Source: Minisyncoccota bacterium
Lineage (GTDB): Bacteria > Patescibacteriota > Minisyncoccia > Phycocordibacterales > UBA1006
NCBI GenBank assembly: GCA_028697455.1
Contig: JAQVEZ010000002.1
Location: 89,921-153,920, forward strand
Direction: 5' to 3'
Length of the DNA stretch: 64,000 nucleotides
Below the pieces are notes generated by a model, which ran no database searches, was not told the DNA's origin, and saw only the letters and a list, made by a program, of their open reading frames with translations. The first letter of the stretch is position 1; each line of letters starts with the position of its first letter. The translations under genes were made by a program, and so were the position numbers. This document shows positions 10,400-38,842 of the stretch, piece by piece.

Positions 10400-10513
10400 C
10401 AGATAAAAAAAGCAATAAAGAATATTTATTGCTTTTTATTTATCCACAAATTATTTTTACTTCTCACAAAAAACTTGCTCAAGAGAAGGGCGAGGTGATA
10501 TTCTAGTAAGAAT

Positions 10514-11725
10514 ATGAAGAAAATTAATTTTATATTATTATCAATATTTTTTATAAGTCTGGCGTTTTTGGGAACAGATGCGTATGCAAATGAAATCGAA
10601 TGGTCAAGCATCGAAGCTCCTGCACAAAATTCTTGGCGTGCTGTAACCTATGGTGAAGGGAAATTTGTTGCCGTTTCTACCGATGGAACAAATCGAATTA
10701 TGATTTCAGAAGACGGTAAAAACTGGGAAGTAACTCCAACTACTTGGGGAAGCCAATGGTTTACTGGAATTGCTTACGGGAACGGAGCTTTTGTTCTTGG
10801 AAATGCTTGGAATGGCAACATTTTCTATCGATCAATAGATGGAGGACAAACGTGGACAGGAGTTACCGGAGCCGCTAGTGGAGCTCAATTGGGAGACATT
10901 GCTTATGTTGACGGGGTTTTTGTTGCTGTTGATTATTCAAGAAGCTTTACTAATCAAGCAGCAGGTCAGCAAATATTCATTTCAAATGATGGATGGACGT
11001 GGGAAGCAAAAGGAGAATCAGCCAAGAAATACTGGCATGGTATTGCTTACGGAGATGGAAAAATTGTTATTGTAGGGGGGAAAGGAGAATCAGCAACTGA
11101 TGGAAAACACATTGGAGTATCCGAAGACAAAGGACAAACCTGGCAATACTTTGCGGCACCAGTGGCTGGAGGTGGTTATTGGACCAGTGTTGCTTACGGG
11201 AATGGTAAATTCGTAGCCGTCTCAGACGACGAGGGAGCTGCTCAAGACATTATTGTATCAAGTGATGGTAAGAACTGGACAGCCTACTCTTCTCCCGACA
11301 CCAAAGCATGGTGGGAAGATATTGCTTTCGGAAATGGATATTTTGTAATGGTATCGTATGACTACGATAATAATTTGAGTGAACCAGGAAAGGCTGTTGC
11401 TATCTCTAAGGACGGAATTAACTGGGAGACCGTTGATACAGTACCGGGTCACGGATATTACTCAGTTACTTTTGGAGACGATAAGTTTGTTGTCGTAGCC
11501 CTTGACTCTGATGATAATAATCGAATCTTTCTTGGAGAATTTCCTCCACAAAAAAGCCTTTCATCTTCCAATATCTTCGGAACCCGATTCTGTTCAGCAG
11601 AAGTTACCACCTTCTGTCGACCACAAAACGGATTTATGAATAATAATCCATTAGTAAATATCTACACTGAACTTTTGGGACTCTATCAACAACTCCTTTC
11701 TGCAATGCAGGGACAAAACAGCTAA
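10514..11725 (+). CDS. Secreted beta-propeller-like repeat protein with shared conserved C-terminal tail (family member A)
   Basis: Signal peptide ending AYA; about 7 repeats W..(V/I)AYG.GKFVAV...S.DG..W; tail IFGTRFCSAEVTTFCRPQNG...IYTELLGLYQQLLSAMQ. Confidence 0.85.
   Translation: MKKINFILLSIFFISLAFLGTDAYANEIEWSSIEAPAQNSWRAVTYGEGKFVAVSTDGTNRIMISEDGKNWEVTPTTWGSQWFTGIAYGNGAFVLGNAWNGNIFYRSIDGGQTWTGVTGAASGAQLGDIAYVDGVFVAVDYSRSFTNQAAGQQIFISNDGWTWEAKGESAKKYWHGIAYGDGKIVIVGGKGESATDGKHIGVSEDKGQTWQYFAAPVAGGGYWTSVAYGNGKFVAVSDDEGAAQDIIVSSDGKNWTAYSSPDTKAWWEDIAFGNGYFVMVSYDYDNNLSEPGKAVAISKDGINWETVDTVPGHGYYSVTFGDDKFVVVALDSDDNNRIFLGEFPPQKSLSSSNIFGTRFCSAEVTTFCRPQNGFMNNNPLVNIYTELLGLYQQLLSAMQGQNS
11570..11725 (+). 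repeat. Conserved C-terminal tail module, copy 1
   Basis: 156 nt aligning without gaps to 12739-12894 and 24051-24206. Confidence 0.95.
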
Positions 11726-11740
11726 GGCTGTTTTTCTTTT
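11715..11740 (+). terminator. Intrinsic terminator overlapping the stop codon
   Basis: AAAACAGC-taag-GCTGTTTT followed by a T tract. Confidence 0.75.
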
Positions 11741-11821
11741 GTGAGATTCTTGTTGATGTTTTGGAAATAGATTATAATAAAAGAGAGAAGATCCTCTTCT
11801 GTTGAGAATAAGTTGTTTAGG

Positions 11822-11848
11822 AGCCCGCTATTCCGTAGCGGGCTTTTT
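11822..11848 (+). terminator. Orphan intrinsic terminator
   Basis: AGCCCGCTA-ttccg-TAGCGGGCT-TTTT. Confidence 0.8.
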
Positions 11849-11975
11849 GATATAAAAAGTTACCCACAGGTATCTTTTCTGATACTTGACATTTATCTTT
11901 ATTGTGATAAATTTACTAATGAATCTAACCAATTTAACAACAACACACCGCTTTAACCAAGCACCTAAACCACAA

Positions 11976-12007
11976 GGCTCCCTTTCATTCGTGAAAGGGG
12001 CTTTTTT
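11976..12007 (+). terminator. Intrinsic terminator with UUCG loop
   Basis: GGCTCCCTTTCA-ttcg-TGAAAGGGGC-TTTTTT. Confidence 0.8.
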
Positions 12008-12042
12008 CTTTATTTTATTTAATCTTGGTATACTAAAAGAGT

Positions 12043-12894
12043 ATGAAAAAATACGTTTTTACATCACTACTATCATTGTTCGTTATAGTAGGATTTACAA
12101 GCTTTATGAGTCCACACAAAGTTTCTGCTGATTTTGAAGAAGGTCCTGAGGTTGTTTTTGAGGATGGAGGAAGATCTATTGTTGCAACTTTTGATCATGT
12201 TTTTCTTTTTACTCTTAAATATTTTGAGGAGGAAGATGGTACTGGTTATGAATTTGAAGATATAAGTATTCAAAGTTCTAGTGATAAGTGCGAAACAGAA
12301 AATGATGGGGACATCTACACAATAAGTTGTTATCAAGATATTCCCTTTGAAGTACAGAGTATAGTTATTGATTTTATGTGGAAGGGAGAATCACAAGGTG
12401 GTTATGCTCCAACACTATCTTCTTCAGATGTCTATAACAGAGCATTTACTTACCCAGAAATAATCTTTGAAGAAGGTGGTAGAGTTGTTATTATCAATTT
12501 TGATTCTGAATTTTATTTTGATATTTGTTATTTTGATGACGATTGTCTAATATATCTTTCTGATGGGGATTCTCTTGGAGAGGAATGTGAGATTATAGGA
12601 GATTATTCTGTTCGTTGTGAACAAGACATTCCTAAAGGAGCACTCGGGGTTGGGGTAGATGTATACGATGGAGATGGGAACGATTTTTATGATGAATATC
12701 TTTTTTCAACTCATAATCCTTCCTCATCAAGTATTTCAAATATCTTCGGAACACGATTCTGTTCAGCAGGAGTTACGACTTTCTGTCGACCTCAAAATGG
12801 ATTTACGAATAATAACCCATTAATCAGTATCTATACTGAACTTTTGGGATTGTATCAACAACTCCTTTCTGCTCTTCAAAACGAAAACAGCTAA
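12043..12894 (+). CDS. Secreted acidic protein with two tandem Cys-containing domains and the shared C-terminal tail (family member B)
   Basis: Signal peptide ending VSA; internal repeat PE(V/I)(V/I)FE(D/E)GGR...C....C.QDIP twice; same tail as 10514. Confidence 0.85.
   Translation: MKKYVFTSLLSLFVIVGFTSFMSPHKVSADFEEGPEVVFEDGGRSIVATFDHVFLFTLKYFEEEDGTGYEFEDISIQSSSDKCETENDGDIYTISCYQDIPFEVQSIVIDFMWKGESQGGYAPTLSSSDVYNRAFTYPEIIFEEGGRVVIINFDSEFYFDICYFDDDCLIYLSDGDSLGEECEIIGDYSVRCEQDIPKGALGVGVDVYDGDGNDFYDEYLFSTHNPSSSSISNIFGTRFCSAGVTTFCRPQNGFTNNNPLISIYTELLGLYQQLLSALQNENS
12739..12894 (+). repeat. Conserved C-terminal tail module, copy 2
   Basis: NIFGTRFCSAGVTTFCRPQNGFTNNNPLISIYTELLGLYQQLLSALQNENS. Confidence 0.95.
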
Positions 12895-12907
12895 TCCTAG
12901 CTGTTTT
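12884..12907. terminator. Bidirectional terminator between convergent genes
   Basis: AAAACAGCTA-atcc-TAGCTGTTTT. Confidence 0.75.
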
Positions 12908-13434
12908 TATTCTGCGTTATAATACACATCTTGAACGTCATCGTGTTCTTCGAGAGTTTCAATAAGGGCTTCGAGTTTCTCACCTGTTTCATCATCAATT
13001 TCAATGGTGGTGTTAGGTATCCAATCACGCTCTTCGTTTTGACTAAAATTCCAAGCAACGGATCCACTTGCCCCAAGTGAAGCTCCGTTTTTTGAAAGAA
13101 GGTGTTTGATTTCTTGACTGGTTCGATTGTTGTTATCGGTAAGGCCGGTAATAATAATACCAACTCCTCCAGGGCCATAAGCTTCATAGAGAACAGGAGT
13201 CATATCTCCCGATTCAGATGCTTTTTTGATGGCACGATCGATGTTATCGTTTGGCATATTTTCTTTTCGTGCTTTTTCAATTGCTGTTTTAAGTCCAGGA
13301 GCATTCACATCCCCTCCAGATTTTTTTGCTTCAACTTGAATAAGACGAACGAGCTTTCCAAAGATTTTTGATTTTTGTGCATCAGTTGCTGCTTTTTTGT
13401 GTTTTATTTTTGACCATTTATTGTGTCCAGACAT
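12907..13434 (-). CDS. yebC: YebC/PmpR family protein (short, 175 aa)
   Basis: MSGHNKWSKIKHKK, NMPNDNIDRAIKK, YEAYGPGG, TDNNNRT, LEEHDDVQDVY. Confidence 0.93.
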   Translation of the reverse strand: MSGHNKWSKIKHKKAATDAQKSKIFGKLVRLIQVEAKKSGGDVNAPGLKTAIEKARKENMPNDNIDRAIKKASESGDMTPVLYEAYGPGGVGIIITGLTDNNNRTSQEIKHLLSKNGASLGASGSVAWNFSQNEERDWIPNTTIEIDDETGEKLEALIETLEEHDDVQDVYYNAE

Positions 13435-13469
13435 AAGTTAAGAAAGATAAGGGTGAATAATAGAGAAGG

Positions 13470-14435
13470 TTATTTTTTACCGAGATGAGCATAAGCTTTT
13501 TCGGTTGCGACACGCCCTCGTGAGGTGAGCTCGACAAGCCCCAATTGAACAAGATAGGGCTCAACGACCGATTCAAGCGTATCTTTTTCTTCATGAGTTG
13601 CAATAGCGAGCGTCCGCAAGCCAACAGGTCCTCCATTGAATTTATCAATAATAGTATTGAGAATATCGCGGTCATTCTGATGAAGCCCGATTTCATCTAC
13701 CCCAATAAGAGAAAGGGATTCAAGGACAGTGTCTTTGTTGATGGCTTTGTTATGAACATCAGCAAAGTCACGAACACGTTTTAAAAAATAATTTGCTGTC
13801 CGAGGGGTATAGCGACTTCGAATGGCAATTTCACGAGCAGCATCGGTATCAATACGAATGCCTAACTTTGCTGCTGATTGGTGGATAATTGTTTCCATTT
13901 CCTCGTTCGTATAGAATTCGAGTTTGAAAGTTCCTCCAGAAAATCGAGACCGCAATGGAGCCGAGAGCATCGCGATTTTTGTTGTCGCTGCAATGAGGGT
14001 AAAAGGAGGAAGATCGAGTTGAATCGTTCGAGCTGAAGGTCCTTTCCCAATAATAATATCGAGGAACCCAGATTCCATTGCAGGGTAGAGGACTTCCTCG
14101 ATATTTTTATTGAGACGGTGAATCTCATCAATAAAGAGAACATCTCCTTCGCTGAGGTTGGTGAGGATACTTGCGAGATCACCGACTTTTTCGATAGCAG
14201 GCCCTGAAGTTGTTTTGATATTTCGTCCGATTTCTTTTGCAATAAGATAGGAAAGCGTTGTCTTACCAAGACCAGGGGGTCCATAAAAAAGTAAGTGCTC
14301 GGGTTGTTGCCCGCGGTTTTGCGCAGCTGTGAGTAAGATGTGAAGATTATCTTTTATTGACTGCTGGCCTATGTATTCATCCCATGTTTCTGGTCTGAGC
14401 TGTGAATTAAGTGCTTGAGGTGCTTGTTCTTGCAT
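13470..14435 (-). CDS. ruvB: Holliday junction helicase RuvB
   Basis: LRPETWDEYIGQ, GPPGLGKTT, FIDEIHRL, LYPAMES, TSRGR; start chosen at MQEQ, 7 nt after TATGAT. Confidence 0.96.
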   Translation of the reverse strand: MQEQAPQALNSQLRPETWDEYIGQQSIKDNLHILLTAAQNRGQQPEHLLFYGPPGLGKTTLSYLIAKEIGRNIKTTSGPAIEKVGDLASILTNLSEGDVLFIDEIHRLNKNIEEVLYPAMESGFLDIIIGKGPSARTIQLDLPPFTLIAATTKIAMLSAPLRSRFSGGTFKLEFYTNEEMETIIHQSAAKLGIRIDTDAAREIAIRSRYTPRTANYFLKRVRDFADVHNKAINKDTVLESLSLIGVDEIGLHQNDRDILNTIIDKFNGGPVGLRTLAIATHEEKDTLESVVEPYLVQLGLVELTSRGRVATEKAYAHLGKK

Positions 14436-14492
14436 AATAGATATCATAACATTTTTTAAGCTTTTTTTGAAGAAAGGGCTTGACAATTTTAT

Positions 14493-14512
14493 TTATTCAC
14501 ATATTATCCACA
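14493..14512 (+). promoter_or_regulatory. Tandem DnaA boxes in the ruvB/ncRNA divergent promoter region
   Basis: TTATTCACA 14493-14501 and TTATCCACA 14504-14512, just after TTGACA 14480-14485. Confidence 0.55.
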
Positions 14513-14588
14513 GGAATATATGACATTGAAAAAATGCCATGTTATAGTCAAGATCCAACAGAGCTATTTATACGAGGGGAAAGGCCTC

Positions 14589-14616
14589 TTGACAAAATAA
14601 TTAGTTCTGCTATACT
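14589..14616 (+). promoter_or_regulatory. Strong sigma70 promoter
   Basis: TTGACA-16 nt-TATACT with extended -10 TG. Confidence 0.8.
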
Positions 14617-14625
14617 GTTCTTATA

Positions 14626-14795
14626 CATTGAAAGCGTGAATCTCTAAACAATCAGATCTCGCGAATTTGGCCACGTGGATAGGAATATTTGGCTCTCATC
14701 TTGTAATGAGTTCTGCTGAGTATCTCGTTGAAGCGTCGTCAACCTTTATTTTATAAAGTTTTTTTCTGGGTGTTTAGAGGTTTATGCTTTTAATG
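14626..14795 (+). ncRNA. Structured ncRNA, probable 6S RNA
   Basis: 25-bp closing stem 14626-14650/14771-14795 with several G-U pairs, central bubble, long apical stem; own promoter and terminator; no ORF. Confidence 0.65.
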
Positions 14796-14829
14796 AAAAA
14801 GCCGTTCTCATTCTGAGAGCGACTTTTTT
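14796..14829 (+). terminator. Terminator of the ncRNA
   Basis: AAAAAGCCGTTCTCA-ttc-TGAGAGCGACTTTTTT. Confidence 0.75.
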
Positions 14830-14861
14830 ATTACTGTTTTTGCTTGTATAATAGAAAGAGC

Positions 14862-17159
14862 ATGGCTGCTTTCGACGATAAGGAACAAAATAAAAAAATC
14901 CAAGACATCCGAGCGAAGGAAGAAGAAGCATTCACCGAAAAAATTGCAAAGAAATTTGACCTTCCTTATATTGATCTTACGGGAGCCACGATAGAAACAG
15001 ATGCTCTTTCTAAGGTAAAAGAAGAAGACGCGCGGAAAGCCCTCCTCGCTCCTTTTAAAATTGTTGGAAAAGATTTATATGTTGCGCTCAAGTCGCCTAA
15101 TCTCCCCGAAACAAAAAGAGTTCTTGATAATCTTGAAAAAGACTACAATCTTGGAATTCATCTTGCATCCCAACGAAGTCTTGAAAAAGCATGGGGGCGT
15201 TATGAAGACATTACCTTTACCTTTGGAATAGAAGGAGGGGTTTTAGATATTTCTGAAGAAGAAATCAAAAAACTCGCTGCAAAAATCAAAACCAACCAAG
15301 ACATTGCCTTTGAATTTGACCGGGTTCTTGCTTTGGGAGAAGAGCGAAAGGTAACGCGTCTTATGGAAATTATTTTTGCCGGAGCTATTGCAACCGATTC
15401 TTCTGATGTGCATATTGAAGCGCAAGACGGAAAGGTAAGACTTCGTTTCCGTCAAGATGGAGTTCTTCAAGATATTATTTATTTTGACCCAGCTACCTAC
15501 AAACAAATTCTTTCACGAATTAAGCTCCTTTCAGAAATGAAACTTACTCAAACAGAAAATGCTCAGGACGGAAGGTTTACGATTGATTACGATAAAAAAG
15601 AAATTGAAATCCGTGTATCGGTTGTTCCAGGAGCTTTTGGAGAATCTTTTGTGATGCGTATTTTGAATCCCGATGGGATTAAAGTTGGAGTTGAACATCT
15701 TGGAATCGAAAAACGTCTTTATGAAATCCTTCTCAAGGAAATCGAAAAACCAAACGGAATGATTTTGACAACCGGACCTACCGGATCAGGAAAGACCACA
15801 ACCTTGTATTCTTTTATGAACAAAGTCTATTCTCCTGAGGTAAAGATTCTCACGATTGAAGACCCTATTGAATATCGTATTGAAGGAATCAACCAAACAC
15901 AGGTAAATCGCCAAAAAGGCTACACTTTTTCTTCTGGACTCCGAGCGGCTTTGCGACAGGACCCAGATATTATCATGGTGGGAGAGATTCGAGACAGTGA
16001 AACGGCAAGTATCGCGGTGAACGCTTCACTTACGGGGCACTTGGTTCTTTCAACACTCCACACGAACAGTGCAGCAGGAGTTATTCCTCGACTCCTTGAC
16101 CTTGGAGTATCCCCACAAATCCTTGCGGCTGCCTTATCGGTTTCGATTGCTCAGCGTTTGGTTCGTAAGGTTTGTGAATCATGTAAAGAAATTGTTGCTC
16201 CAACACCAGAACAAGAAGGTATTATTAGAGACGTTTTGAGAGAAGCACAAAAGAACGAAAAACCTCTTCACGAATACGGAATCAGCGTAAACCAAAAAAT
16301 AGAACTCAGTCGCGGAAAGGGCTGTGAAGTATGTAATGGAACAGGATATAAAGGACGTATCGGACTTTTTGAAGCTATTATTACTGATGAATATATCGAA
16401 GAACTCCTCAACAAGAGCCCGTCCGAACAAGAAATTCGTCGTGTTGCCGAAAAGCAGAGACTTCTTAATATCCGTGAAGATGGGGTAGTAAAAATCCTTA
16501 ATGGAATTACTTCTTTTGAAGAAGTTCAAAAGGTGATCGATCTTGATATCAAAAATATCACCCAATTTAAAACTGATACAGAAACCTCTCAAGGAGAAAA
16601 TATTTCTTTGGTAAACGAAGAAAGTAATCTTCCTCAGCAAAATACTTTTGCAGAAATACCTGAAAGTTCCAAACCCATATCTCAAGAAAACAAAGAAGAA
16701 GAAAATCTTGAAAAACTCCTCGAAGAAGTAAGTAAAAAAATCGACCTTGTCAAAGGGTCTGTTATCCCAAGCAAAAAAATTATCCCCGAAGAAGGAGCCC
16801 AAATCTCTCAGATTCCCCCTGCTGCAATTCTTAATAACAAAAGTATTGAGATATCGCTTTTGATTGATTATTTAAGACGACTTGAGCAGGATCAAATTCT
16901 TCGTCCCGATGTTGATATCAGTAAACAGATCAAACAAGTACAGCTCACAATACTTGAGCTTCTCCAGCGGAAACAAGCAGAAAGTATTCTCAACGCACAA
17001 GGAAATTTTGCACAAGCACACAAAACCTATACCGAACTTGCTGATGAGCTTGATACGCTCTATCGAGAACAACTTCAGAACCCAGGAGTTGATATGTCAG
17101 AAAGGATTAAAAAAATCCGTGAAGAAATTGAGTACTATCATTCACAACAAAGTATCTAA
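14862..17159 (+). CDS. Type IV pilus/T2SS assembly ATPase (PilB/GspE family) with long C-terminal extension
   Basis: SDVHIE, RFRQDG, QDGRF, TGPTGSGKTTTLY, EDPIEY, LRQDPDIIMVGEIRD, TGHLVLSTLH, CxxC...CxxC; start at MAAF, 9 nt after TATAAT. Confidence 0.92.
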   Translation: MAAFDDKEQNKKIQDIRAKEEEAFTEKIAKKFDLPYIDLTGATIETDALSKVKEEDARKALLAPFKIVGKDLYVALKSPNLPETKRVLDNLEKDYNLGIHLASQRSLEKAWGRYEDITFTFGIEGGVLDISEEEIKKLAAKIKTNQDIAFEFDRVLALGEERKVTRLMEIIFAGAIATDSSDVHIEAQDGKVRLRFRQDGVLQDIIYFDPATYKQILSRIKLLSEMKLTQTENAQDGRFTIDYDKKEIEIRVSVVPGAFGESFVMRILNPDGIKVGVEHLGIEKRLYEILLKEIEKPNGMILTTGPTGSGKTTTLYSFMNKVYSPEVKILTIEDPIEYRIEGINQTQVNRQKGYTFSSGLRAALRQDPDIIMVGEIRDSETASIAVNASLTGHLVLSTLHTNSAAGVIPRLLDLGVSPQILAAALSVSIAQRLVRKVCESCKEIVAPTPEQEGIIRDVLREAQKNEKPLHEYGISVNQKIELSRGKGCEVCNGTGYKGRIGLFEAIITDEYIEELLNKSPSEQEIRRVAEKQRLLNIREDGVVKILNGITSFEEVQKVIDLDIKNITQFKTDTETSQGENISLVNEESNLPQQNTFAEIPESSKPISQENKEEENLEKLLEEVSKKIDLVKGSVIPSKKIIPEEGAQISQIPPAAILNNKSIEISLLIDYLRRLEQDQILRPDVDISKQIKQVQLTILELLQRKQAESILNAQGNFAQAHKTYTELADELDTLYREQLQNPGVDMSERIKKIREEIEYYHSQQSI

Positions 17160-17219
17160 ACACTCTTGACAAAGAGTGTTTTTACTTTATGATAAGGAAG
17201 AATTTAAAATATTTTAAAA

Positions 17220-17933
17220 ATGAAAATAAAAACATTGTATTTGGTGTTGACGGCATTTTTTCTGAGTGCTTGCGCAAGTAGCACTTACCAGAAGATGCCT
17301 CCACCGAACCTTCAGCTATCCTTTCAAAATTTACAGTTTGAAAGGATAGATCCTGTGTCCCTTGTAGGCGTCTATGTCTCGTTTACAACAGCGGGACAGT
17401 TCTACAAAGACTCGCGAGCCGATCGTGAGGAAGCAGTCGATGCGGGTGTTTACATCCAGCACGACATTCTGTCGGGCGAGAGTTTGTATCAACCACTGGT
17501 CACTCCTGTTTTATACCTTACTGGTAAGGATCAGGGAAAACCTGTTCGGGACAAACGAACTGGCAAGATCCTCACGGATGATTTCCTTGGTGAGATCGTC
17601 TCGGTTGAGATAATGGACGGAGGACTTCCCTTGTTCTGGGTACATATTGATTCTCCTACGGGAGGAGCGATTTTGCCCTTTGGGCTTAGAGAAAGCCCCA
17701 AGCAAAAGGGACGACTTCAGGACAAGTTCGTCCTGATGATTGATAACAAGAGCGTCAGCTCTGGGGGGAAGAATTTCTTTCCAATTACGGATCTCTCTGG
17801 ACAAACCTGGTTTGCTCAGAATCCTGGCATGGGATTGAGCAAAATCTATTTTGCGAAATCCTCGGAGAACCAATCAACCTCTGAGGTGGGAACCTCAAAA
17901 AAGGTTGGGTTACCCGCCATTCGGGAACAGTAA
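17220..17933 (+). CDS. Hypothetical protein with lipoprotein-type signal peptide
   Basis: MKIKTLYLVLTAFFLSAC lipobox; visibly more GC-rich than its neighbours. Confidence 0.7.
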   Translation: MKIKTLYLVLTAFFLSACASSTYQKMPPPNLQLSFQNLQFERIDPVSLVGVYVSFTTAGQFYKDSRADREEAVDAGVYIQHDILSGESLYQPLVTPVLYLTGKDQGKPVRDKRTGKILTDDFLGEIVSVEIMDGGLPLFWVHIDSPTGGAILPFGLRESPKQKGRLQDKFVLMIDNKSVSSGGKNFFPITDLSGQTWFAQNPGMGLSKIYFAKSSENQSTSEVGTSKKVGLPAIREQ

Positions 17934-18027
17934 TAATTAAAACAAAAACCCCAATTCTTGGACTTTTCCACAGGAGAGGGGTTTTATTCTTGACAAGTTA
18001 TCTTAATTATGATAAGATATTATCAAG

Positions 18028-18176
18028 GCTGAGTTCTTTACAAGTTCATTTTATTTAATTTTGAGAGTTAATTGTTTTTTTCAATGTAAAGTCTCAGCTC
18101 TTTAGGGAGAGTAACAGCATTATTATTCCTAAAGAGCTGAGAATGGTTCTCAGTAATTCAAAACTCAAAAAATTAA
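18028..18176 (+). promoter_or_regulatory. Structured 5' leader with mutually exclusive helices
   Basis: 18028-18042 pairs with 18085-18098; 18092-18108 pairs with 18126-18142; 18137-18143 pairs with 18147-18153. Confidence 0.5.
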
Positions 18177-18180
18177 AAAA

Positions 18181-19140
18181 ATGAAAAAAATCTTTTTTTT
18201 GTTCATTGCAATACTGGGTATTGTGGTGAACGCAAATTATCTGGCTCCTGAAGGTTATTTTGTCCTTGAGGGAAGAACACAGGCAATGCCCAATGTGAAT
18301 TGGCTGGCCTCAGAAATGAACCCAACCAATTTTCCCATCTATGCACAGGAAAACAATAGTATGGGAGCATACTTTAACTATTCTTTCGTTCAGGATGGGA
18401 GAGTGATGGGTACTGAAAGGATTCACCTTTCGGATCAGATAGTAGCGTCCATTGGGCGCCACTTGTCAAATCCGAGAACCGGAGAGTCTTTGTCATCCGT
18501 TTGTGCCCGACAGGGAGGGCAATTTAATGCTGTTAATCGTATCGCTTTGCAATACGCACAACAGCAGATACCTGCTCCTCAGCAGCAATGCTGTCCTACG
18601 CCAGCCCCCCAACAAACTCAAATTGAGTATGTGGATAGACCTGTTTATATACAGGATCCACAAACCAATGAGATGTTGGCTCAATTACAAGCTGACAACG
18701 TTCAGCTTGAAAAACAACTGAGACGCAACCAGACCTGGACCCATATTTGGGGAGGGGTGAACCTGGCGGCGACAGCAGTAGACGGGTATTTGACTCGTCG
18801 TGAGATTAAAAAAAGAAACCGCCCTGTTAACTATAATTATAAAATAGTTAACAATACTCGTACCACCAATAATACCTATAATAATGGTGGAACGACTGGT
18901 AGTGGTGAGACCTGGACTGGAAACGGTTCAGGAAACGAGAACGGTGGTAGCTGGAATCCGAACAACAATCCCGGAAATAACAACGGGAATGGTTCGGGAG
19001 CCGATCCCTTTGGGAGAGGCTATCAGCAAGGAAGTGGATACTCACAAGGCTATTCGTCTATGACGAGCCAGGTGAGAACATCAGCTTCTGGAAGAAGCTC
19101 AAACGGAACAAAATCCGTGCGCTTCCAGAAGAAGCGTTAA
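18181..19140 (+). CDS. Secreted/membrane hypothetical protein (P/Q linker, coiled coil, hydrophobic helix, G/N-rich tail)
   Basis: Signal peptide MKKIFFLFIAILG; QQQCCPTPAP; TWTHIWGG; GETWTGNGSG. Confidence 0.7.
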   Translation: MKKIFFLFIAILGIVVNANYLAPEGYFVLEGRTQAMPNVNWLASEMNPTNFPIYAQENNSMGAYFNYSFVQDGRVMGTERIHLSDQIVASIGRHLSNPRTGESLSSVCARQGGQFNAVNRIALQYAQQQIPAPQQQCCPTPAPQQTQIEYVDRPVYIQDPQTNEMLAQLQADNVQLEKQLRRNQTWTHIWGGVNLAATAVDGYLTRREIKKRNRPVNYNYKIVNNTRTTNNTYNNGGTTGSGETWTGNGSGNENGGSWNPNNNPGNNNGNGSGADPFGRGYQQGSGYSQGYSSMTSQVRTSASGRSSNGTKSVRFQKKR

Positions 19141-19254
19141 GCAAAATTTAAAACAACAAGAGCCTTACGAGTTAAGGCTCTTTTTTATTGCACCAAAACA
19201 TTGACAAGAGACTCTTACAATGCTATTTCTAGGGTAAATATAAAAAAATTAAAG

Positions 19255-20055
19255 ATGAAAAAAGTTTTCTTTTTCTTTGTTGTGCTTTTTTCAAGCTTTG
19301 CGCTTGAGGCACAACGAAATGACGGGGTTGCCCGTCCGACCCGAGGTGCTTTTTGGGATCAGGGCTGCGACGGCTCCATATCCAAGTACGTCGAAAATAA
19401 TCTTGGACCAGGGACTTACTCTGTAGAGTGTGGCGGAATTTCTTATTCCATTGTTGTTGAGCAGATGTGGGATAAAGATACTAAAATTCTTTTCCGTGAT
19501 GGAAATTTTTCCGAAAGAAATCGTAACTGGGTTACGATTTACGGAAAAAAAATCTGGAGATATTCAAGCTCAAATGACTGGACCCTTGCAGATTGTGGAA
19601 ATCGTATCTACGATATCTCTCGTGGACCAAAAGATCTCCAAGGAGGAGGGCTTGTTGTTACTGGCGATAACGGATGTAATTGTCCCGAGCCAAAAGTAAA
19701 GGACTATCAGTTCGAAACGACACCCTTGCGGGGGACAAATACTCCTATGTATTATTTTCCTCCACAACCCCAACAGCCAATGTACGCTTTTGACCAAAAT
19801 GCGTTCTTACCAAAGCAAAAAACTTGGATGGGGAGAAATTGGGGATGGTTTGTTCCACTTCTTGCTGTTGGCGTTGGTACGGGAACGTATTTCCTGATAG
19901 ACGCACTCAACAGCAACCACAGCTCAAGCAACCCACCACCTGATGATGGAGATGGTGATGAGACCTGGGGTCCGAACGACTCTGGGAGTGAACGAGGAAA
20001 AGTGTATACCGTTCCAACCCCTTCAAGAGGGTTTGTTATTCCTATTTTCCAGTAA
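19255..20055 (+). CDS. Secreted/membrane hypothetical protein, architecture similar to 18181
   Basis: Signal MKKVFFFFVVLFSSFALEA-Q; CNCPEP; TWMGRNWGW plus TM; DETWGPNDSG; the listed TTG start at 19201 coincides with a -35 box. Confidence 0.7.
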   Translation: MKKVFFFFVVLFSSFALEAQRNDGVARPTRGAFWDQGCDGSISKYVENNLGPGTYSVECGGISYSIVVEQMWDKDTKILFRDGNFSERNRNWVTIYGKKIWRYSSSNDWTLADCGNRIYDISRGPKDLQGGGLVVTGDNGCNCPEPKVKDYQFETTPLRGTNTPMYYFPPQPQQPMYAFDQNAFLPKQKTWMGRNWGWFVPLLAVGVGTGTYFLIDALNSNHSSSNPPPDDGDGDETWGPNDSGSERGKVYTVPTPSRGFVIPIFQ

Positions 20056-20164
20056 AAGAGGGAAAACTGTGGATAACTTTTAAAAAGTAAAAGGTGTAGT
20101 TGACAACTACATCTTTTTTTGCTATGATACACTTGTTATTCATTATAATTTATCACGACATAAC

Positions 20165-22804
20165 ATGAATCAATTTATCAAAAAATTTGTACAAATTGCA
20201 GTACTTACCGGATCCCTCGTTATTGCAGGGAATGCTTTGGCTGCAAATTTTGACCCCCAACCAATGGGGAATCATGGTTTTACAACCATTAACACCAATT
20301 GTTCACAAGATTGTGCAAATCAAAAAAACAGTATTTCATACAACGAGCTTCCAGCAAGCAAGGAATTTACTGTGTATTTGAATTTTCACAATAATACCCC
20401 TGGGCATATTACTAATGCTGCAGGAAAGGTGAGCTATGCTTCATCTGGAAGTTCAGGGTCTGCGACTTTCACCGGACAGCTTTCTGGGTCAGGAGCATCA
20501 ACTATTACTGACACAGCGACTATTACAAACCTTCCATCAAGTTGGCAAATTCAATTTGTTTCTGGTTTTGTAAGAGTAGAAGAACACTACAGTAACCAAG
20601 GAACTCCCTGTACTGGGACTTTTCCTGGAACATGGCCATGGCAACATAGTTTTTCAAACCCTTCTAATGCACCAATAGGAACACTTCATTACTTTAATGC
20701 TAATGAAGGAGGATGGTGTGATCAAGGATATGTTTTTGCAAAATTTAAAATCGTTGATACCACCGTTAATGATCCAACACCAGTAAACGGTCAGTGTCGT
20801 GTTTATAATGGAACCTACTCCTCACAACCTGCAACGAACACCGCAACTGGATGTCTTGCAGGAACCTATCAAGATACACAGGACACTCAAACACAATGGA
20901 GATGGCAATGTAACGGATTGCATGGTGGAGCAACAACCAGTTGTTCTGCCGCAAAGCAAACCATTAACCAACCAGAGTATAGTTATGCCTGGGGATGGAG
21001 TGCCTGGGGATCCTGTATTAACAACATTCGAACAAGAACAGCTCAGTGTTTACGAACAGAAGTAGGAACTCAAGGACCGTCAAACCCTGTTGTGGTAAAT
21101 GATAGTTACTGTATCCAAAATGTTGGGCCAAAACCAGCACCACAAACTCAATCTTGTTCAGGAACACCTTCTGAAGATACTCTTTCTATTGAAACCTTAG
21201 GAGCAACGAATATTACCCAATCAAGCGCAAAGCTTAATGGACGAGTTCTTGCGGGAAGTACTAACTATGTTTACTTTGTATTAGGAACTAACAGTAACAA
21301 TCTTACCTGTTCTTCTAATAACAAATATTTCCCTTATGATTTCAACATTAACCGAAATGCTGGGGATATGTTTAGCTATACTTTCCCTAACGGAAGTTTG
21401 AGCAGCAACTCAACCTATTACTACCGAGCATGTGCCCAAGGAGTTACCGGAATTACTCCAGGACAAATTGTTTCTTTCAAAACAAAAAAAGCTTCATCAA
21501 ATGAAAATCACGTTGAGATCGTTACCGAAGCGCCACAATCAGTAACCAAGACAACAGCTGATCTCTGTGCGAACCTTGTTGAGGATGGAGGGAGTCAAGT
21601 TCAAACATGGATTGAATATCGAAAGAGTTCAGCAAACTCATGGTCAGAGACACCTACTCATCAACGATATGCAGGATACTTCTGTCAGTCAGTTACAGGG
21701 CTTTCTTCAAACACTTCATACGTGTATCGAGCATGTACTCCAGAGGGATGTGCTTCAACCAGAACCTTTAAGACTCTTTCTTCTGGGTCTGGAAGCTATG
21801 ATCCAGGAGAAGCTCCCATTATTATTACTGACGACCCAACAAACGTTCGAAGTAACGGAGCAATCCTTAACGGTACTTATGTAACTAACGCACCAAGTGG
21901 AACCTGTTGGTTCGAATACGGACGAACAGCCAACCTTGGAAGCCAAACACGAAGCTATTCTGTGGGAAGCGGATATGGAACCTGTGTTCATAACTTTACT
22001 AATCTTGCAGCAAATCAGCTTTACTGTGTACGAGCCGTTATTCAGACCGTAAATGGAACTTCACGAGGAGGAATAAAATGTTTCACTACACCAGGAACTA
22101 CTTATACTGGAGGAGGAACAGTCTATGTACCTCCACGAGTTGTTGTTGTTGAAGAAAACCCACAAGTAGACCTCTCTGCTCTTGGACTAGGACTTTCTTT
22201 GGTGAGACTCAATATCGATGATCACAATGATGTTGTTTTTCCAGGACAACAAGTTATGTATGAGGTAACATGGGAAAATATTTCTCATATTGATCTTGAT
22301 AACTTGCAACTCAAGGTTACTATTCCTTCAAAAATCACTATCACCAGTGCTTCACGAGGACGAATTAACCCAGAGGACAACAGTATTCTCTATATGATTA
22401 GTGACCTTCGTTCAGGAGAGCGAGGAGAGCTTACCATTGGAGGACTTGTTGGGAAACCAACCATAGGAACCGCACTTACTGCACAAGCAGAACTTGCGTA
22501 TAAAAACCCTATTAACTTTGCACAAGAAAATGCTCTTGATTTTGACATCAACGATGTTGGAACAAGAATTGCAGGAGTAACGGCTTCTATCTTTGGATTA
22601 GGAAATATTACCTTCCTTGGATGGCTTGTAATTCTCCTTGGACTCTTTATTATCTTCTTGATTGCTCGGTATCTTTACCTTGAACGAGAAGAATTGAGAG
22701 CTCAGGCATATATGAGTGGATATTCACCATATAACAATCCACCAAACTTTAACCCACGACCTCAAGACGATTATTACAATCCGTATCGACCAAATCGTGG
22801 ATAA
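20165..22804 (+). CDS. Large Cys-rich surface adhesin-like protein (TSP1-like motif, 3 FN3-like repeats, DUF11-like domain, C-terminal TM)
   Basis: Signal ending ALA; PVNGQC..WRWQCNG..GG; WGWSAWGSC..RTRT.QC; T..(A/P)..(I/V)....A.L..., YYYRAC/YVYRAC repeats; TM FLGWLVILLGLFIIFLIA. Confidence 0.75.
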   Translation: MNQFIKKFVQIAVLTGSLVIAGNALAANFDPQPMGNHGFTTINTNCSQDCANQKNSISYNELPASKEFTVYLNFHNNTPGHITNAAGKVSYASSGSSGSATFTGQLSGSGASTITDTATITNLPSSWQIQFVSGFVRVEEHYSNQGTPCTGTFPGTWPWQHSFSNPSNAPIGTLHYFNANEGGWCDQGYVFAKFKIVDTTVNDPTPVNGQCRVYNGTYSSQPATNTATGCLAGTYQDTQDTQTQWRWQCNGLHGGATTSCSAAKQTINQPEYSYAWGWSAWGSCINNIRTRTAQCLRTEVGTQGPSNPVVVNDSYCIQNVGPKPAPQTQSCSGTPSEDTLSIETLGATNITQSSAKLNGRVLAGSTNYVYFVLGTNSNNLTCSSNNKYFPYDFNINRNAGDMFSYTFPNGSLSSNSTYYYRACAQGVTGITPGQIVSFKTKKASSNENHVEIVTEAPQSVTKTTADLCANLVEDGGSQVQTWIEYRKSSANSWSETPTHQRYAGYFCQSVTGLSSNTSYVYRACTPEGCASTRTFKTLSSGSGSYDPGEAPIIITDDPTNVRSNGAILNGTYVTNAPSGTCWFEYGRTANLGSQTRSYSVGSGYGTCVHNFTNLAANQLYCVRAVIQTVNGTSRGGIKCFTTPGTTYTGGGTVYVPPRVVVVEENPQVDLSALGLGLSLVRLNIDDHNDVVFPGQQVMYEVTWENISHIDLDNLQLKVTIPSKITITSASRGRINPEDNSILYMISDLRSGERGELTIGGLVGKPTIGTALTAQAELAYKNPINFAQENALDFDINDVGTRIAGVTASIFGLGNITFLGWLVILLGLFIIFLIARYLYLEREELRAQAYMSGYSPYNNPPNFNPRPQDDYYNPYRPNRG

Positions 22805-22808
22805 TACC

Positions 22809-22832
22809 AAAAAACACCTTCGGGTGTTTTTT
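22809..22832 (+). terminator. Intrinsic terminator
   Basis: AAAAAACACC-ttcg-GGTGTTTTTT. Confidence 0.85.
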
Positions 22833-22870
22833 GATATGGAACAAAGAGTACAAAAGTTTTTGACAAAAAA

Positions 22871-22902
22871 TTGACTCGGGGGGGGGGGCAGGGTGATATA
22901 CT
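22871..22902 (+). promoter_or_regulatory. Sigma70 promoter with G11 homopolymer in the -35/-10 spacer
   Basis: TTGACT 22871-22876, G11 22878-22888, TG-a-TATACT 22894-22902; spacer 20 nt. Confidence 0.7.
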
Positions 22903-22910
22903 AGATGAGT

Positions 22911-24209
22911 ATGAATAAACATATTTTTACGTCACTACTATCGTTATTTGTGATAGTAGGTTTTACAAGTTTTATTAACCCACACACGGTTTCTGCTCAA
23001 CCTATCGAATGGGAGGAGTTTGATTTGAGTCCTGATAATTATAATTCTATTGCTTACGGAAATGGAGTGTATGTTGTGGTCGGGGATGAAGCCTCAATGT
23101 ACTCCTCTGACGGAAAGAATTGGTACCCAGCAATGACCTCGTTGGCGGGAGTCCTGTACTCCGTTGTTTATGGAGATGGAAAATTTGTCGCAGTAGGAAG
23201 CAGCAACAACACAAGTACAAGCAATCCTGTAGCTTATACCTCTACAGATGGAGTAATATGGAGTCCTTCTTTTGAGGCCTTGCCCCCTAAAGTAAATACT
23301 GGAGCTGGGCTTAAAAAAGTTTCCTATGTCTATGACAATATCAACGAAAAAAACCTTTTTGTCGCAGTAGGATCTGACTTATCTAATCTTTTAGGAGGAA
23401 GTCAGATTCCTTACATTATTTATTCTTCTAATGGAAACGAGTGGTTTAAGGCTACCTTACCAATGGGGGTTAATGGTACCGCTTCAGATTTAACAGGAGG
23501 TTATAATGAAGATGGAGAGGTCGTTTTCCTATCTTCAGTAGCAACAAACCCCCTTCTCTCTTCATCAAATATTATTATGTCTACTAATGGTGGAGCAAAT
23601 TGGTTCTATCCAGACGACGCTCTTACAGGACTTGACGGTTTTAGCGGGGCAGCTATGAGCTACCTTAATGGAGAATTTTTTCTTGGAGGAACTATTTCTG
23701 ATATGGGAAGTAAGCTTATTTATGTAATGTCTTCATCGGATGGATTCAATTGGGAGCAGCATGAAGTTGGGTCAACTGTCTCATTTTTTCCTAGATTCAA
23801 TTTTGCATATGGAAATGATAATTATATATCGATAGGGGCAGAAGAATCAATATATTCTTTGGGTGGAGAAAATTGGGAATTTTTTACTCCAAGTTTTGAC
23901 AAGAGCACTGATTTTGGAGTCTATCCAATACAATTAATTTATGCAGATGATTCCTTTGTTCTTTTGGGACAAAATGAATTAGGAGAATCTATTGTTGCTT
24001 TTCCTAAACGCCTGAACGATTCATCAGAAGGGCTTTCTTCAAAATCTTCAAGCATTTTTGGAACACGATTTTGTTCAGCAGGAGTTACGACTTTCTGTAG
24101 ACCACAAAACGGATTTGTGAACAACAACCCATTGATTAGTATTTATACTGAACTTCTGGGACTGTACCAACAACTCCTTTCTGCGATGCAGAGTGAAAAT
24201 AGCTTATAA
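22911..24209 (+). CDS. Secreted beta-propeller-like repeat protein with shared C-terminal tail (family member C)
   Basis: Signal peptide nearly identical to 12043; IAYGNG/VYGDGKFVAVG/S.DG..W repeats like 10514; same tail; start 22911 preferred over 22905 from -10 spacing. Confidence 0.85.
   Translation: MNKHIFTSLLSLFVIVGFTSFINPHTVSAQPIEWEEFDLSPDNYNSIAYGNGVYVVVGDEASMYSSDGKNWYPAMTSLAGVLYSVVYGDGKFVAVGSSNNTSTSNPVAYTSTDGVIWSPSFEALPPKVNTGAGLKKVSYVYDNINEKNLFVAVGSDLSNLLGGSQIPYIIYSSNGNEWFKATLPMGVNGTASDLTGGYNEDGEVVFLSSVATNPLLSSSNIIMSTNGGANWFYPDDALTGLDGFSGAAMSYLNGEFFLGGTISDMGSKLIYVMSSSDGFNWEQHEVGSTVSFFPRFNFAYGNDNYISIGAEESIYSLGGENWEFFTPSFDKSTDFGVYPIQLIYADDSFVLLGQNELGESIVAFPKRLNDSSEGLSSKSSSIFGTRFCSAGVTTFCRPQNGFVNNNPLISIYTELLGLYQQLLSAMQSENSL
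24051..24209 (+). repeat. Conserved C-terminal tail module, copy 3
   Basis: SIFGTRFCSAGVTTFCRPQNGFVNNNPLISIYTELLGLYQQLLSAMQSENSL. Confidence 0.95.
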
Positions 24210-24222
24210 GAGCTGTTTTTTT
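24196..24222 (+). terminator. Terminator overlapping the stop codon
   Basis: AAAATAGCT-tataag-AGCTGTTTT followed by a T tract. Confidence 0.7.
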
Positions 24223-24252
24223 ATTTTCGGATTTTGTTAGTATAAGAACTGT

Positions 24253-24702
24253 ATGGAAACCTTCCTTATCAAAAATAAAAAGGAACTCGATTCTTTTGCT
24301 GATAATTTTTTGACAAAATTTGAACCTTCTTTAGAGGGAGCAAGCTTAGTACTTCTTGAAGGAGATCTTGGCTCTGGAAAAACAACCTTTGTTCAATCGT
24401 GTGCAAGGTATTTTGGTATTGAAGAAGCTCTGACAAGCCCGACTTTTGTTATCCAAAAATCCTATCCAATAAAAGCTCATCAGAATTTTCACAAGCTGGT
24501 TCACATTGATGCCTATCGTTTGGATGGACACAAAGACCTTGAATATCTTGGCTGGGAAGAATTGATTCAAGAAAAGGGGATAATTATTTTTTTGGAATGG
24601 CCTCTGATTGTTTCTGGGATTCATTTTCCTCACGATACGGTATCATTATCCTTCTCAATTCTCGAAAACGAAGAGAGAAAAATCATTTTTTCAAAGAAAT
24701 AA
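24253..24702 (+). CDS. tsaE: tRNA t6A biosynthesis ATPase TsaE
   Basis: LEGDLGSGKTTF, TSPTFVI, HIDAYRL, EWP. Confidence 0.95.
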   Translation: METFLIKNKKELDSFADNFLTKFEPSLEGASLVLLEGDLGSGKTTFVQSCARYFGIEEALTSPTFVIQKSYPIKAHQNFHKLVHIDAYRLDGHKDLEYLGWEELIQEKGIIIFLEWPLIVSGIHFPHDTVSLSFSILENEERKIIFSKK

Positions 24703-32483: not shown

Positions 32484-33497
32484 ATGATATGGATAACTTT
32501 AGGTATTATTATTACTTCAATTGCTGGTATTTTTTTAGCACAACACATCGAAAAACATCGCTCTGATGAGAATCACAGTATTTGCCCAATAGGAAGTAAC
32601 TGTGAACCACTTCTCAACGGAAGATTCTCACATTTTTTTGGAATTTCTGTTGAGAAAATTGGAAAATGGTATTTTGCATTTATTCTTGCTCTTTATACGG
32701 CAAGTCTTGTTGTTCCCCTTCCTTTGTGGATTTTATTTATAGGACTTTCGTCTTCTCTTGTTGCGTTCGCTTTCTCTTTATACCTTTCAATCGTTCAGGT
32801 TTTTGTTGTGAGGCGATGGTGTACGCTTGCGCTCTTTTCAACAGCCCTTAGTTTCCTGGTTCTCGTATTGGCTTTTCTTGGTTATGAAAAAACCTTTATA
32901 GAGTTTACCTATTCTCATCGAGATCTTTTTAGGTGGGTGTATGTTCTTGCTGTGTGGGGAGGAACACTTATCACAACGTTCCATGCAGGAACTTTTATAA
33001 AATTCCTTAAAGATTTTAAAATTTCAAAACGAGAAGAGAAACGACTCACTATGTTTTCTCAGGTAGCGTGGACTGCTCTTGGACTTGCTTTCCTTGCGGG
33101 GATAGGACTTGTTTTGACAGATCAATGGAGAGAAATTGTCGACAGTACTTCCTTTGTTGTTATGGTTTTTGTTATGGGGATGCTTATTGTCTATGAGGTT
33201 GTCGCAAATATGATTGTAGCGCCTTGGCTTATTCATCTTAATTTTGAAGAAGGTCTCTCGGAAGAAGAGCTCACACGACACGCTTTTTATAGAAAAACTG
33301 CCTTTAGTTTTATTGGGGTTGGGGTTGTTTCTTGGTATTCGCTCCTCCTCCTCACTACCTTTGACTGGTTCAGTTATTCAAGCTTACAAATTTTCCTTAT
33401 TTACGTAGGACTTATTATTGCATCAGTTATTTGTGCACTCTATCTTGAGCTTATTATTTCTAGAAAATCACAACTTTTCCAAAAAAAAGAACTCTAA
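32484..33497 (+). CDS. VKOR-family disulfide-bond formation protein fused to an extra multi-TM domain
   Basis: CPIGSNC...S.FFG, WCTLA at the CxxC position; about 9 TM helices. Confidence 0.75.
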   Translation: MIWITLGIIITSIAGIFLAQHIEKHRSDENHSICPIGSNCEPLLNGRFSHFFGISVEKIGKWYFAFILALYTASLVVPLPLWILFIGLSSSLVAFAFSLYLSIVQVFVVRRWCTLALFSTALSFLVLVLAFLGYEKTFIEFTYSHRDLFRWVYVLAVWGGTLITTFHAGTFIKFLKDFKISKREEKRLTMFSQVAWTALGLAFLAGIGLVLTDQWREIVDSTSFVVMVFVMGMLIVYEVVANMIVAPWLIHLNFEEGLSEEELTRHAFYRKTAFSFIGVGVVSWYSLLLLTTFDWFSYSSLQIFLIYVGLIIASVICALYLELIISRKSQLFQKKEL

Positions 33498-38167: not shown

Positions 38168-38842
38168 ATGACAAGTACATCAAAACGACGAAACAAAAGA
38201 GCTTGGATTATTAGTATTATTGCCATCGTAGCACTTTTGATTATTGCTTTTATTATTTCTCGAACAGAGAAAACTGTCGACCCAGCATCTTTTGCTGATG
38301 TTGTAACCTTTGATTTAGGAGCTCATGAAAAAGGAAATCTTGATTCTCAAATACGACTTATTGAATATTCTGATTTTCAATGTCCTGCATGTAAATCAGC
38401 TGAACCTGCTGTTGAAGATCTTGTAAATACTTTCGGTGATCAGTTTGTGTTTGAATATCGACACTATCCACTGAGATCAATTCACCCTAATGCACAAAAA
38501 GCAGCAGAAGCTTCAGAAGCAGCCGCAAAGCAGGGAAAGTTTTGGGAGATGCATGACATTCTTTTTGCTCGACAAAACGAATGGTCACAATCATTTAACC
38601 CAGAAAAAATGTTTAGCTCTTACGCAAAAGAAATTGGGTTGAACGTTGACCGCTTTAAATATGATTTGAAATCAGATGAGGTTAAGAAGGTGGTTAATGA
38701 TTCTTATAATGAAGCAGTAAGTCTTAACCTTCCAGGGACACCTTCATTTGTGTACGACGGAAAAGAGATTGATTTTAATGACTTTATTAACCAGCACCTT
38801 GATCTTTCTCAATTTATTCAGCCAGAGATTATCGAAGAATAA
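38168..38842 (+). CDS. DsbA-family thioredoxin-fold protein
   Basis: EYSDFQCPAC, RHYPL, GKFWEMHD, GTPSF; N-terminal TM. Confidence 0.92.
   Translation: MTSTSKRRNKRAWIISIIAIVALLIIAFIISRTEKTVDPASFADVVTFDLGAHEKGNLDSQIRLIEYSDFQCPACKSAEPAVEDLVNTFGDQFVFEYRHYPLRSIHPNAQKAAEASEAAAKQGKFWEMHDILFARQNEWSQSFNPEKMFSSYAKEIGLNVDRFKYDLKSDEVKKVVNDSYNEAVSLNLPGTPSFVYDGKEIDFNDFINQHLDLSQFIQPEIIEE

Follow-up and report, generated by a model that had tools for sequence, protein, structure and literature searches.

Poly-G promoter tracts, apparent module shuffling and a shared C-terminal tail in a family of predicted surface proteins from a Paceibacteria genome

Results

The window analyzed here, a stretch of 64,000 nucleotides (nt) from a Paceibacteria genome (G000; 530,960 bases in 6 contigs, 96% complete), contains three genes, A, B and C, whose products end in the same tail. 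A genome-wide search located this tail at the end of 13 open reading frames (ORFs) scattered over the genome, labelled A to C in the window and D to M elsewhere (Table 1), and seven of these genes carry a long G run in the promoter. From sequence, we consider it somewhat probable that the genes form a phase-variable, cassette-shuffled repertoire of surface proteins with a new, lineage-restricted tail. Within this proposal, the G-run promoters and the module shuffling are better supported than the account of the tail as a sorting signal. The original prediction, made on the window, had spoken of three tail genes; all three exist, but the count was too low.

G-run promoters of the tail genes

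In G000, four G/C runs measure 7 bases and seven measure 9-11 bases, with no run of 8 bases. All seven long runs sit in the -35/-10 spacers of tail genes, namely C, D, E, G, H, I and J, against 0.1-0.5 runs of at least 9 bases expected genome-wide from the run-length decay. The layout consists of TTGACT or TTGCAT, a G9-G11 tract and a -10 hexamer 8-9 nt before the ATG, with both hexamers assigned by consensus match only. The runs are distributed over both strands and reappear in independent studies. Being homologous, the seven promoters do not represent seven independent origins. The ORF of gene C can start at 22905 (434 amino acids, aa) or at 22911 (432 aa), and the latter suits the promoter layout because it lies 8 nt downstream of the -10 hexamer. 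Domain searches found neither MutS_I nor MutL in the 96%-complete genome.

The spacers measure 20 nt in C and E, 19 nt in D, H and J, 18 nt in I and 17 nt in G. Throughout G000, 160 promoter-like -10 hexamers were observed 6-11 nt before an ATG (near-leaderless), and the preferred spacer is seemingly 16 rather than 17 nt. At non-TG short-leader promoter-like sites, TTG stood 15-17 nt upstream in 24 of 63, with a mode of 16 nt, against about 2 expected per offset. Since the G-run spacers span 17-20 nt and the genome prefers 15-17 nt, most G-run copies would be low or off as assembled, and C, E and H may depend less on spacing. A promoter scanner with a spacer range of 16-18 nt made no call at gene C, whose spacer is 20 nt. 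The sequence TTATCCACA, which we take to be the DnaA-box consensus, has 16 exact copies in G000, four of them upstream of tail genes (the box near gene A in Table 1, C2:20128, C3:9950 and C4:100893). Judged from the G runs and their spacing, it is quite likely that the G runs switch the tail genes on and off at random, that is, by phase variation.

Contigs from 4 of 22 listed public runs were aligned to window positions 22200-24700, which hold the gene C tract, one of the seven; no RNA run was among those listed. In run X5, from another study and about 96% identical, one spanning contig has a G run 2 bases shorter and lacks one further spacer base, giving a spacer of 17 nt. One contig of run X1, which may be the source run, showed no mismatch and was 1 base shorter; the position was not among the listed rows, and we suspect that the loss falls in the G run. 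In runs X10 and X11, contigs start with the first G of the tract, consistent with either mixed lengths or shared promoters. The gene C contig of run X11 carries 103 differences and 25 gaps over 1202 nt, compared with 1 difference in 560 nt upstream. At window positions 22871-22915, loose contig ends in X1 and X5 join the promoter to other downstream sequences; these populations may contain further G-run genes.

The pattern G9-N4-10-TAYAMT was found in 11 of 400 other genomes of the class, compared with 2 for the backwards control. The next gene encodes a secreted, membrane-anchored or pilin-like protein in 9 of the 11, the others being one contig end and one gene without a signal peptide; the background for such proteins is 51 of 158 genes in G000. 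The downstream genes include a Pfam N_methyl pilin, a CBM35 protein and an S74/Ig fibre. Allowing up to one mismatch, TTATCCACA was found no more than 45 nt upstream in 8 of these 11 class genomes and at 4 of the 7 G000 loci, compared with 6 of 237 background sites. Beyond the class, matches precede exported or anchored proteins in genomes G893, G904 (CWB2), G1157 and G946, and G1042 has its match at a contig end. Within the class the G-run promoter signal is clear, and outside it the signal is weaker. A search of metagenome_contigs with the exact G000 promoter pattern returned no match, and a G8 pattern had one match in 60 relatives, which does not precede a tail-family gene.

Some individual genomes are worth describing. 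A G9 promoter precedes a type IV pilin gene in G348 (L230), and another precedes a prepilin-like cluster in G342 (L229). G126 has six such promoters (G12-G15), five of them near contig ends, mostly preceding one family of fibre-like secreted paralogues without the tail. The same promoter and gene start were observed in G126 (L209, L215, L220, L221, L223, L239) and G101 (L203), genomes filed under different families, reflecting either transfer or binning. In G893, which belongs to another class, three paralogous secreted proteins of no Pfam family (L258, L263, L264) have TTGACA/TATAAT promoters with G11, G9 and G11.

Passengers and module shuffling

All 13 carriers begin with a signal-peptide-like N-terminus, as judged by eye and hydropathy. 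The passenger is a full propeller in 9 carriers, a short propeller in J, and short and of low complexity in K and M. The model of passenger A (pLDDT, the predicted local distance difference test, of 66) has 28 strands in four-stranded blades that form a closed propeller. Its best Foldseek match was Ycf48 (E 1e-12, 15% identity), a match of fold only, and as modelled passenger A has a Ycf48/BNR-like beta-propeller fold. BNR-like propellers also include enzymes. Passenger C is also a beta-propeller, whereas passenger B is modelled, at low confidence, as immunoglobulin (Ig)-like and unrelated to A and C; a single-sequence model of B was unusable (pLDDT 37). These assignments bear out the original view of two propeller passengers and an unrelated one. 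A solved-structure search gave no match for passenger A or the tail profile. The propeller family of passenger A is widespread (2429 matches), and among 54 genomes of the same taxonomic family as G000 only one matched, weakly.

Different parts of the carriers have different closest relatives. D and E share 93% identity in upstream DNA and 57% in signal DNA. The passenger of A is closest to that of H (84%), its 3' end is closest to that of D (87%), and the 3' end of H is closest to that of F (83%). In the passenger tree, A groups with H, and F, C, D and I form another group; in the 3' tree, F groups with H. Each of the three groups is starred; both trees omit B, J, K and M, the 3' tree also omits L and five public-assembly proteins, and no formal clade test was applied. 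In P0011, from a public assembly, the signal (92%) and tail (100%) of J surround a full propeller, and P0007 and P0009 are identical in signal, 98% identical in tail and 37% identical in passenger. Taken together, these comparisons suggest that promoters, signal peptides, passengers and 3' ends have in all likelihood been shuffled between loci, with recombination in conserved blocks as the likely route. They also agree with the earlier description of the tail as a portable C-terminal module, which is terminal on propeller, Ig-like and low-complexity passengers alike. We also observed that paralogue E has a single in-frame TAG after codon 279, being a pseudogene or an assembly error.

The C-terminal tail

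The motif originally described at the ends of A, B and C is present in all three ORFs, with IFG at 11573, 12742 and 24054, one codon later than first given. Both cysteines of the tail and the flanking G, R, F and T residues are invariant in 13 of 13 tails. The ratio of nonsynonymous to synonymous substitution rates (dN/dS) is 0.128 for A/B, 0.036 for A/C and 0.040 for B/C; for the 10 closest tails, which exclude the divergent tails K, L and M, the value pooled from all 45 pairs is 0.064 (dS 0.96, dN 0.06). The tail is under purifying selection at the protein level, as had been proposed from its mostly synonymous differences. A hairpin whose left arm lies in the last tail codons closes 8 of the 10 closest carriers, and part of the conservation at the tail end is explained by these codons doubling as the arm of a terminator-like hairpin.

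The tail appears bipartite, with a Cys-pair module followed by an amphipathic helix. The helix, modelled as such with a pLDDT of about 77, has a hydrophobic moment of 0.35-0.57 and a wide hydrophobic face. P0019 (from G033, same family) and P0020 have the Cys module but not the helix; in both, the module is internal, preceded by Ig-like domains and followed by a C-terminal PG_binding_1 domain. Internal occurrence had been named beforehand as a sign against a C-terminal signal: the full tail is strictly terminal in all 13 carriers, but its Cys half alone is internal in these two relatives. In 10 of the 13 carriers, the tail pair provides the only cysteines beyond the signal region and the first residues; B and M have more, and E was counted through its stop. 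A C-x7-C disulfide is plausible from sequence because VKOR and DsbA-like genes exist in the genome; both lie in the window, as first noted, about 4.7 kb apart, and neither adjoins the tail genes. Since the helix fills the slot that a wall-binding domain occupies in the relatives, we slightly favor a role for the tail as a non-covalent anchor to the envelope or surface.

The tails of A, B and C had no match at E<=1 in Pfam and NCBIfam, which includes the models for PEP-CTERM/PGF-CTERM, GlyGly-CTERM and the T9SS C-terminal domain (CTD) and the PG_binding_1, SLH and CWB2 anchors in Pfam; the end of the tail is modelled as a helix. They had no match among PDB sequences, and an Atlas search with the tail gave no usable match. 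No transmembrane-strength segment, no transmembrane segment with a basic end and no LPXTG-type motif was detected in the tails. Domain searches of G000 found no sortase (PF04203), exosortase (PF09721) or rhomboid (PF01694), and its PF01471 matches are all in other genes, none overlapping the 13 carriers. The claim that the tail is not a known sorting signal therefore stands. A four-copy complex prediction of the tail gave a score of 0.09 and a mark of 0.42. The G126 fibre-like proteins have Cys-pair/QL ends of their own, but homology between these and the tail was rejected (hhalign probability 0.5%).

An exhaustive HMMER search of 1.84 billion representatives returned 14 matches, of which 13 were family members that all matched at their C-terminus; the remaining one, P0141, was a spurious repeat and was rejected as a tail carrier. 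A word-seeded search of a 5.8-billion set returned 21 matches, 18 of them in the tail family. Profile A2 found no true instance of the full tail in 400 genomes of the class; of 13 weak matches (E 0.006-0.04), nine were translated and none was a tail, and four were dropped for internal stops. No tail was confirmed in the pattern-seeded scans, either in genome_contigs (24 stretches) or in metagenome_contigs (78 stretches), and the tail is absent from 118 of 118 homologues of propeller A among those listed. A profile of the Cys module, searched in 54 family and 400 order genomes, found it in G033 alone, after 4 + 4 weak matches in frames of at most 103 aa were dropped untranslated. The tail is lineage-restricted and not a wide sorting signal, and the earlier suggestion that it is the local form of a more widespread signal is not upheld, with the true matches of the exhaustive search confined to the tail family.

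We observed Q/L-rich amphipathic stretches, N- or C-terminal, on other secreted proteins at C6:1247, C6:8741 and C3:24822, two of them beside PG-binding domains; these are possible partners or analogues of the tail helix. The end of P0021, an M23 peptidase, shares an 11-residue identity with the tail helix (E 9.9), which is a lead only.

Genomic context

The carriers stand singly among housekeeping genes, and no partner gene travelling with the tail genes was found in their neighborhoods. A and B are likely an insertion between two genes that are contiguous in relatives, because the PBP gene and yebC adjoin directly in the two closest YebC relatives. The coordinates are collected in Table 1.

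Table 1. Tail genes and associated features; plain numbers are window positions, and C1 to C6 denote contigs of G000.
Feature	Position	Strand	Remarks
Gene A	10514..11725	+	403 aa; signal-peptide-like N-terminus, predicted 7-blade beta-propeller (28 strands), Ser-rich linker, tail
Gene B	12043..12894	+	283 aa; signal peptide of C/D/F/I type, acidic passenger (two predicted Ig-like repeats), tail
Gene C	22911..24209	+	432 aa; signal-peptide-like N-terminus, divergent beta-propeller, Ser-rich linker, tail
Tail of A	11573..11722	+	Cys codons 11591 and 11615 (C-x7-C); amphipathic helix from ~11645
Tail of B	12742..12891	+	
Tail of C	24054..24206	+	
Terminator-like hairpin	11715..11734	+	Left arm in last tail codons of gene A
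-35-like hexamer of gene C	22871..22876	+	TTGACT
G11 tract in gene C spacer	22878..22888	+	Spacer 20 nt here, 17 nt in strain of run X5
-10-like hexamer of gene C	22897..22902	+	TATACT, 8 nt before ATG
Promoter-like site of gene A	10475..10504	+	TTGCTC, 18 nt, TATTCT; G-run layout without G run; weak consensus match only
Promoter-like extended -10 of gene B	12026..12034	+	TGG TATACT, 8 nt before ATG; no G run
TTATCCACA box	10440..10448	+	Upstream of gene A; same position in D, E and H promoters, and in J with one mismatch
VKOR-family membrane protein	32484..33497	+	Context only
DsbA-like thioredoxin	38168..38842	+	Context only
Carrier D	C2:18756-20054		
Carrier E	C3:8598-9875	-	L070; one internal TAG
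Carrier F	C4:54080-55399		
Carrier G	C4:80339-81580		
Carrier H	C4:99594-100817		
Carrier I	C1:30349-31665		
Carrier J	C1:8629-9180		
Carrier K	C6:7497-7889		130 aa
Carrier L	C4:33254-34654		
Carrier M	C4:75895-76479		194 aa

Discussion

How Patescibacteria recognize, retain or change their microbial hosts is largely an open question. We propose the following model for the tail genes. The carriers would be exported by Sec and their signal cleaved, and DsbA/VKOR would close the C-x7-C loop. The terminal helix would keep the protein on the cell surface, uncleaved, at the place where two relatives carry a peptidoglycan-binding domain. Slippage of the G run at replication, left unrepaired without MutS/MutL, would shift the spacer into or out of 15-17 nt, so that each gene is switched independently and, in most cells, the majority of copies are low or off. 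Passengers would be exchanged by recombination within the conserved promoter/signal and tail blocks and would bind host surfaces, and the population would thereby hedge across hosts or host variants. That the passengers are adhesins binding host surfaces seems moderately likely. We also raise, tentatively and as a doubtful possibility, a recurring contingency promoter in Patescibacteria, composed of a DnaA-type box, a slippery G run and a -10, which would gate host-recognition proteins (propeller adhesins, fibres, pilins and wall-binding proteins) stochastically, perhaps by replication state, and here would drive swappable heads on a new Cys-loop/helix anchor.

Several observations weigh against this model. 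The 90 promoter-like sites with TG show no -35 spacing preference, and C, E and H carry TG before the -10, which makes their spacer dependence uncertain. A G run is absent from six carriers, among them A and B. The difference in tract length is one between strains about 96% identical, seen in contigs and not within one population, and the cross-sample comparison covers one of the seven tracts, that of gene C. In other genomes, one G126 tract precedes a housekeeping gene, and the gene behind the G run in G370 has no signal peptide. The class matches are not independent, with four in one genus and the promoter and gene start shared by G101 and G126. In the phylum sample, 9 of 390 genomes matched, compared with 6 for the control, and no surface gene follows at 4 of the 9. 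As for the tail, its Cys loop is unresolved in the model (pLDDT ~30).

Promoter-homopolymer switching is familiar from animal pathogens. The variable Vlp proteins of Mycoplasma hyorhinis are, as described in PMC10502178, paralogous surface proteins with their own transcripts, each switched by insertions or deletions in a promoter homopolymer. The tail genes likewise encode paralogous predicted surface proteins, with a homopolymer in seven of the promoters; they differ in having poly-G rather than poly-A, no lipobox Cys, a C-terminal tail and propeller or Ig-like passengers, and in an organism that likely lives on another microbe. Vlp proteins have an N-terminal lipid anchor. Neisseria Opa adhesins are reportedly encoded by about 11 scattered, independently switched genes. 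Opa switches through frameshift in a coding repeat, whereas the switch of the tail genes would be in the promoter. Promoter poly-G sets transcription of Treponema pallidum tpr and tp0126, and in Neisseria meningitidis porA a poly-G lies between -10 and -35, where spacing other than 17 nt abolishes transcription (both PMC7864442). The seven G-run tail genes resemble these loci in their promoter poly-G and porA in its place within the -35/-10 spacer. Unlike the tail genes, tpr, tp0126 and porA encode outer-membrane proteins of diderm human pathogens, and no shared sequence is claimed; the preferred spacer of G000 is seemingly 16 nt and a DnaA-type box often lies upstream. By analogy, the tail genes likely work like Vlp and tpr/tp0126/porA without belonging to those families. 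The hallmark of a promoter-homopolymer contingency locus, a run of at least 8 bases between -35 and -10, was found at seven loci (G9-G11, hexamers by consensus). Literature on Patescibacteria, CPR, Parcubacteria and Saccharibacteria, mostly open-access texts without supplements, yielded no report of promoter-tract switching. In four papers using the term phase variation, it denotes the host, water phases or a reference title, and it does not occur in a 2026 review (PMC13293708); a hypervariable coding repeat in a gracilibacterium is described in PMC6851277.

The tail can also be compared with known C-terminal modules. It shares with LPXTG, PEP-CTERM, GlyGly-CTERM and the T9SS CTD a short conserved C-terminal module on interchangeable exported passengers, but it has neither their motif-transmembrane-basic layout nor a model match, a cognate enzyme or taxonomic spread. 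In parasitic Paceibacteria, surface proteins of the PG_binding_1 type are highly expressed and have been proposed for host attachment (PMC10936435). Like these PF01471 proteins, the carriers have an exported passenger, a Ser-rich linker and a C-terminal module, and P0019 and P0020 share the Cys module; unlike them, the 13 carriers end in an amphipathic helix.

Other roles of the tail have to be weighed against anchoring. It may be an assembly or oligomerization domain that forms helical bundles or a surface polymer, with K and M as a fixed scaffold and the propellers as switchable displayed subunits, which we regard as unlikely. K (130 aa) and M (194 aa), whose passengers are of low complexity, lack a G run and are retained in other assemblies as P0015 and P0016, the hydrophobic face of the helix is wide, and similar Q/L-rich stretches occur on other secreted proteins of the genome; the position of the helix, that of a cell-wall-binding domain in relatives, points instead to anchoring, and no homology to the G126 fibre-like ends was detectable. 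A processed sorting signal, attached covalently by a dedicated enzyme or by type IV pilus machinery, is very unlikely. Although the tail is strictly terminal, its key residues are invariant and a PilB/GspE-type ATPase is encoded in the window, the genome yielded no sortase, exosortase or rhomboid domain, the tail has no transmembrane segment with a basic end, it is found in one lineage only with no partner gene accompanying the carriers, and its Cys module is also internal in relatives.

The switching itself can be read differently. It may be real and help the cells to escape phage or to avoid host defence instead of choosing hosts, with propellers as receptors, decoys or enzymes. Tracts mostly at lengths predicted low or off and the internal stop of E would be expected if display is costly, and many of the listed propeller-A homologues look phage-borne from their termini, as judged by eye. 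However, G-run promoters elsewhere precede a pilin, a CBM35 protein, an S74/Ig fibre and a CWB2 protein, which are typical attachment parts, and no catalytic family was matched at cut-off in Pfam and NCBIfam, so that we hold this reading to be quite unlikely. Still less probable is that the G runs are artefacts of sequencing, or fixed elements that were copied when a promoter was duplicated, and that the tail is the mere conserved end of recent paralogues. The clear homology of the seven promoters, the last tail codons that double as a terminator arm and the restriction of the family to one lineage would be consistent with it, but tract lengths vary among paralogues and between strains, runs are found on both strands and in more than one independent study, tail dS far exceeds dN, indicating protein-level conservation, and the same layout precedes unrelated surface genes in other lineages.

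If the proposed phase variation holds, adhesin bet-hedging would reach microbe-on-microbe parasites with half-megabase genomes, and the G-run promoter pattern would flag candidate host-interaction or host-specificity genes in uncultured episymbionts. Existing metagenome reads allow tract lengths to be determined and compared with host abundance, so that the proposal can be tested without cultures. The tail, a so far undescribed module, is a candidate surface anchor; being lineage-restricted, it matters less by itself than was first thought.

Other features of the genome

The window also codes for RecA, RuvABC, ComEC and the PilB/GspE-type ATPase. At window positions 17220-20055, three secreted-looking ORFs, one of them Gly/Asn-rich, had no match in Pfam or NCBIfam; they are flanked by pilB and a gene for an 879-aa surface protein and are possibly acquired genes. 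Elsewhere in G000, C2:83979-88561 holds two tandem, near-identical ORFs of about 760 aa each. A 488-aa secreted protein is encoded on the minus strand at C2:41452-42924, and its end resembles by eye a T9SS C-terminal domain, which is odd in this lineage.

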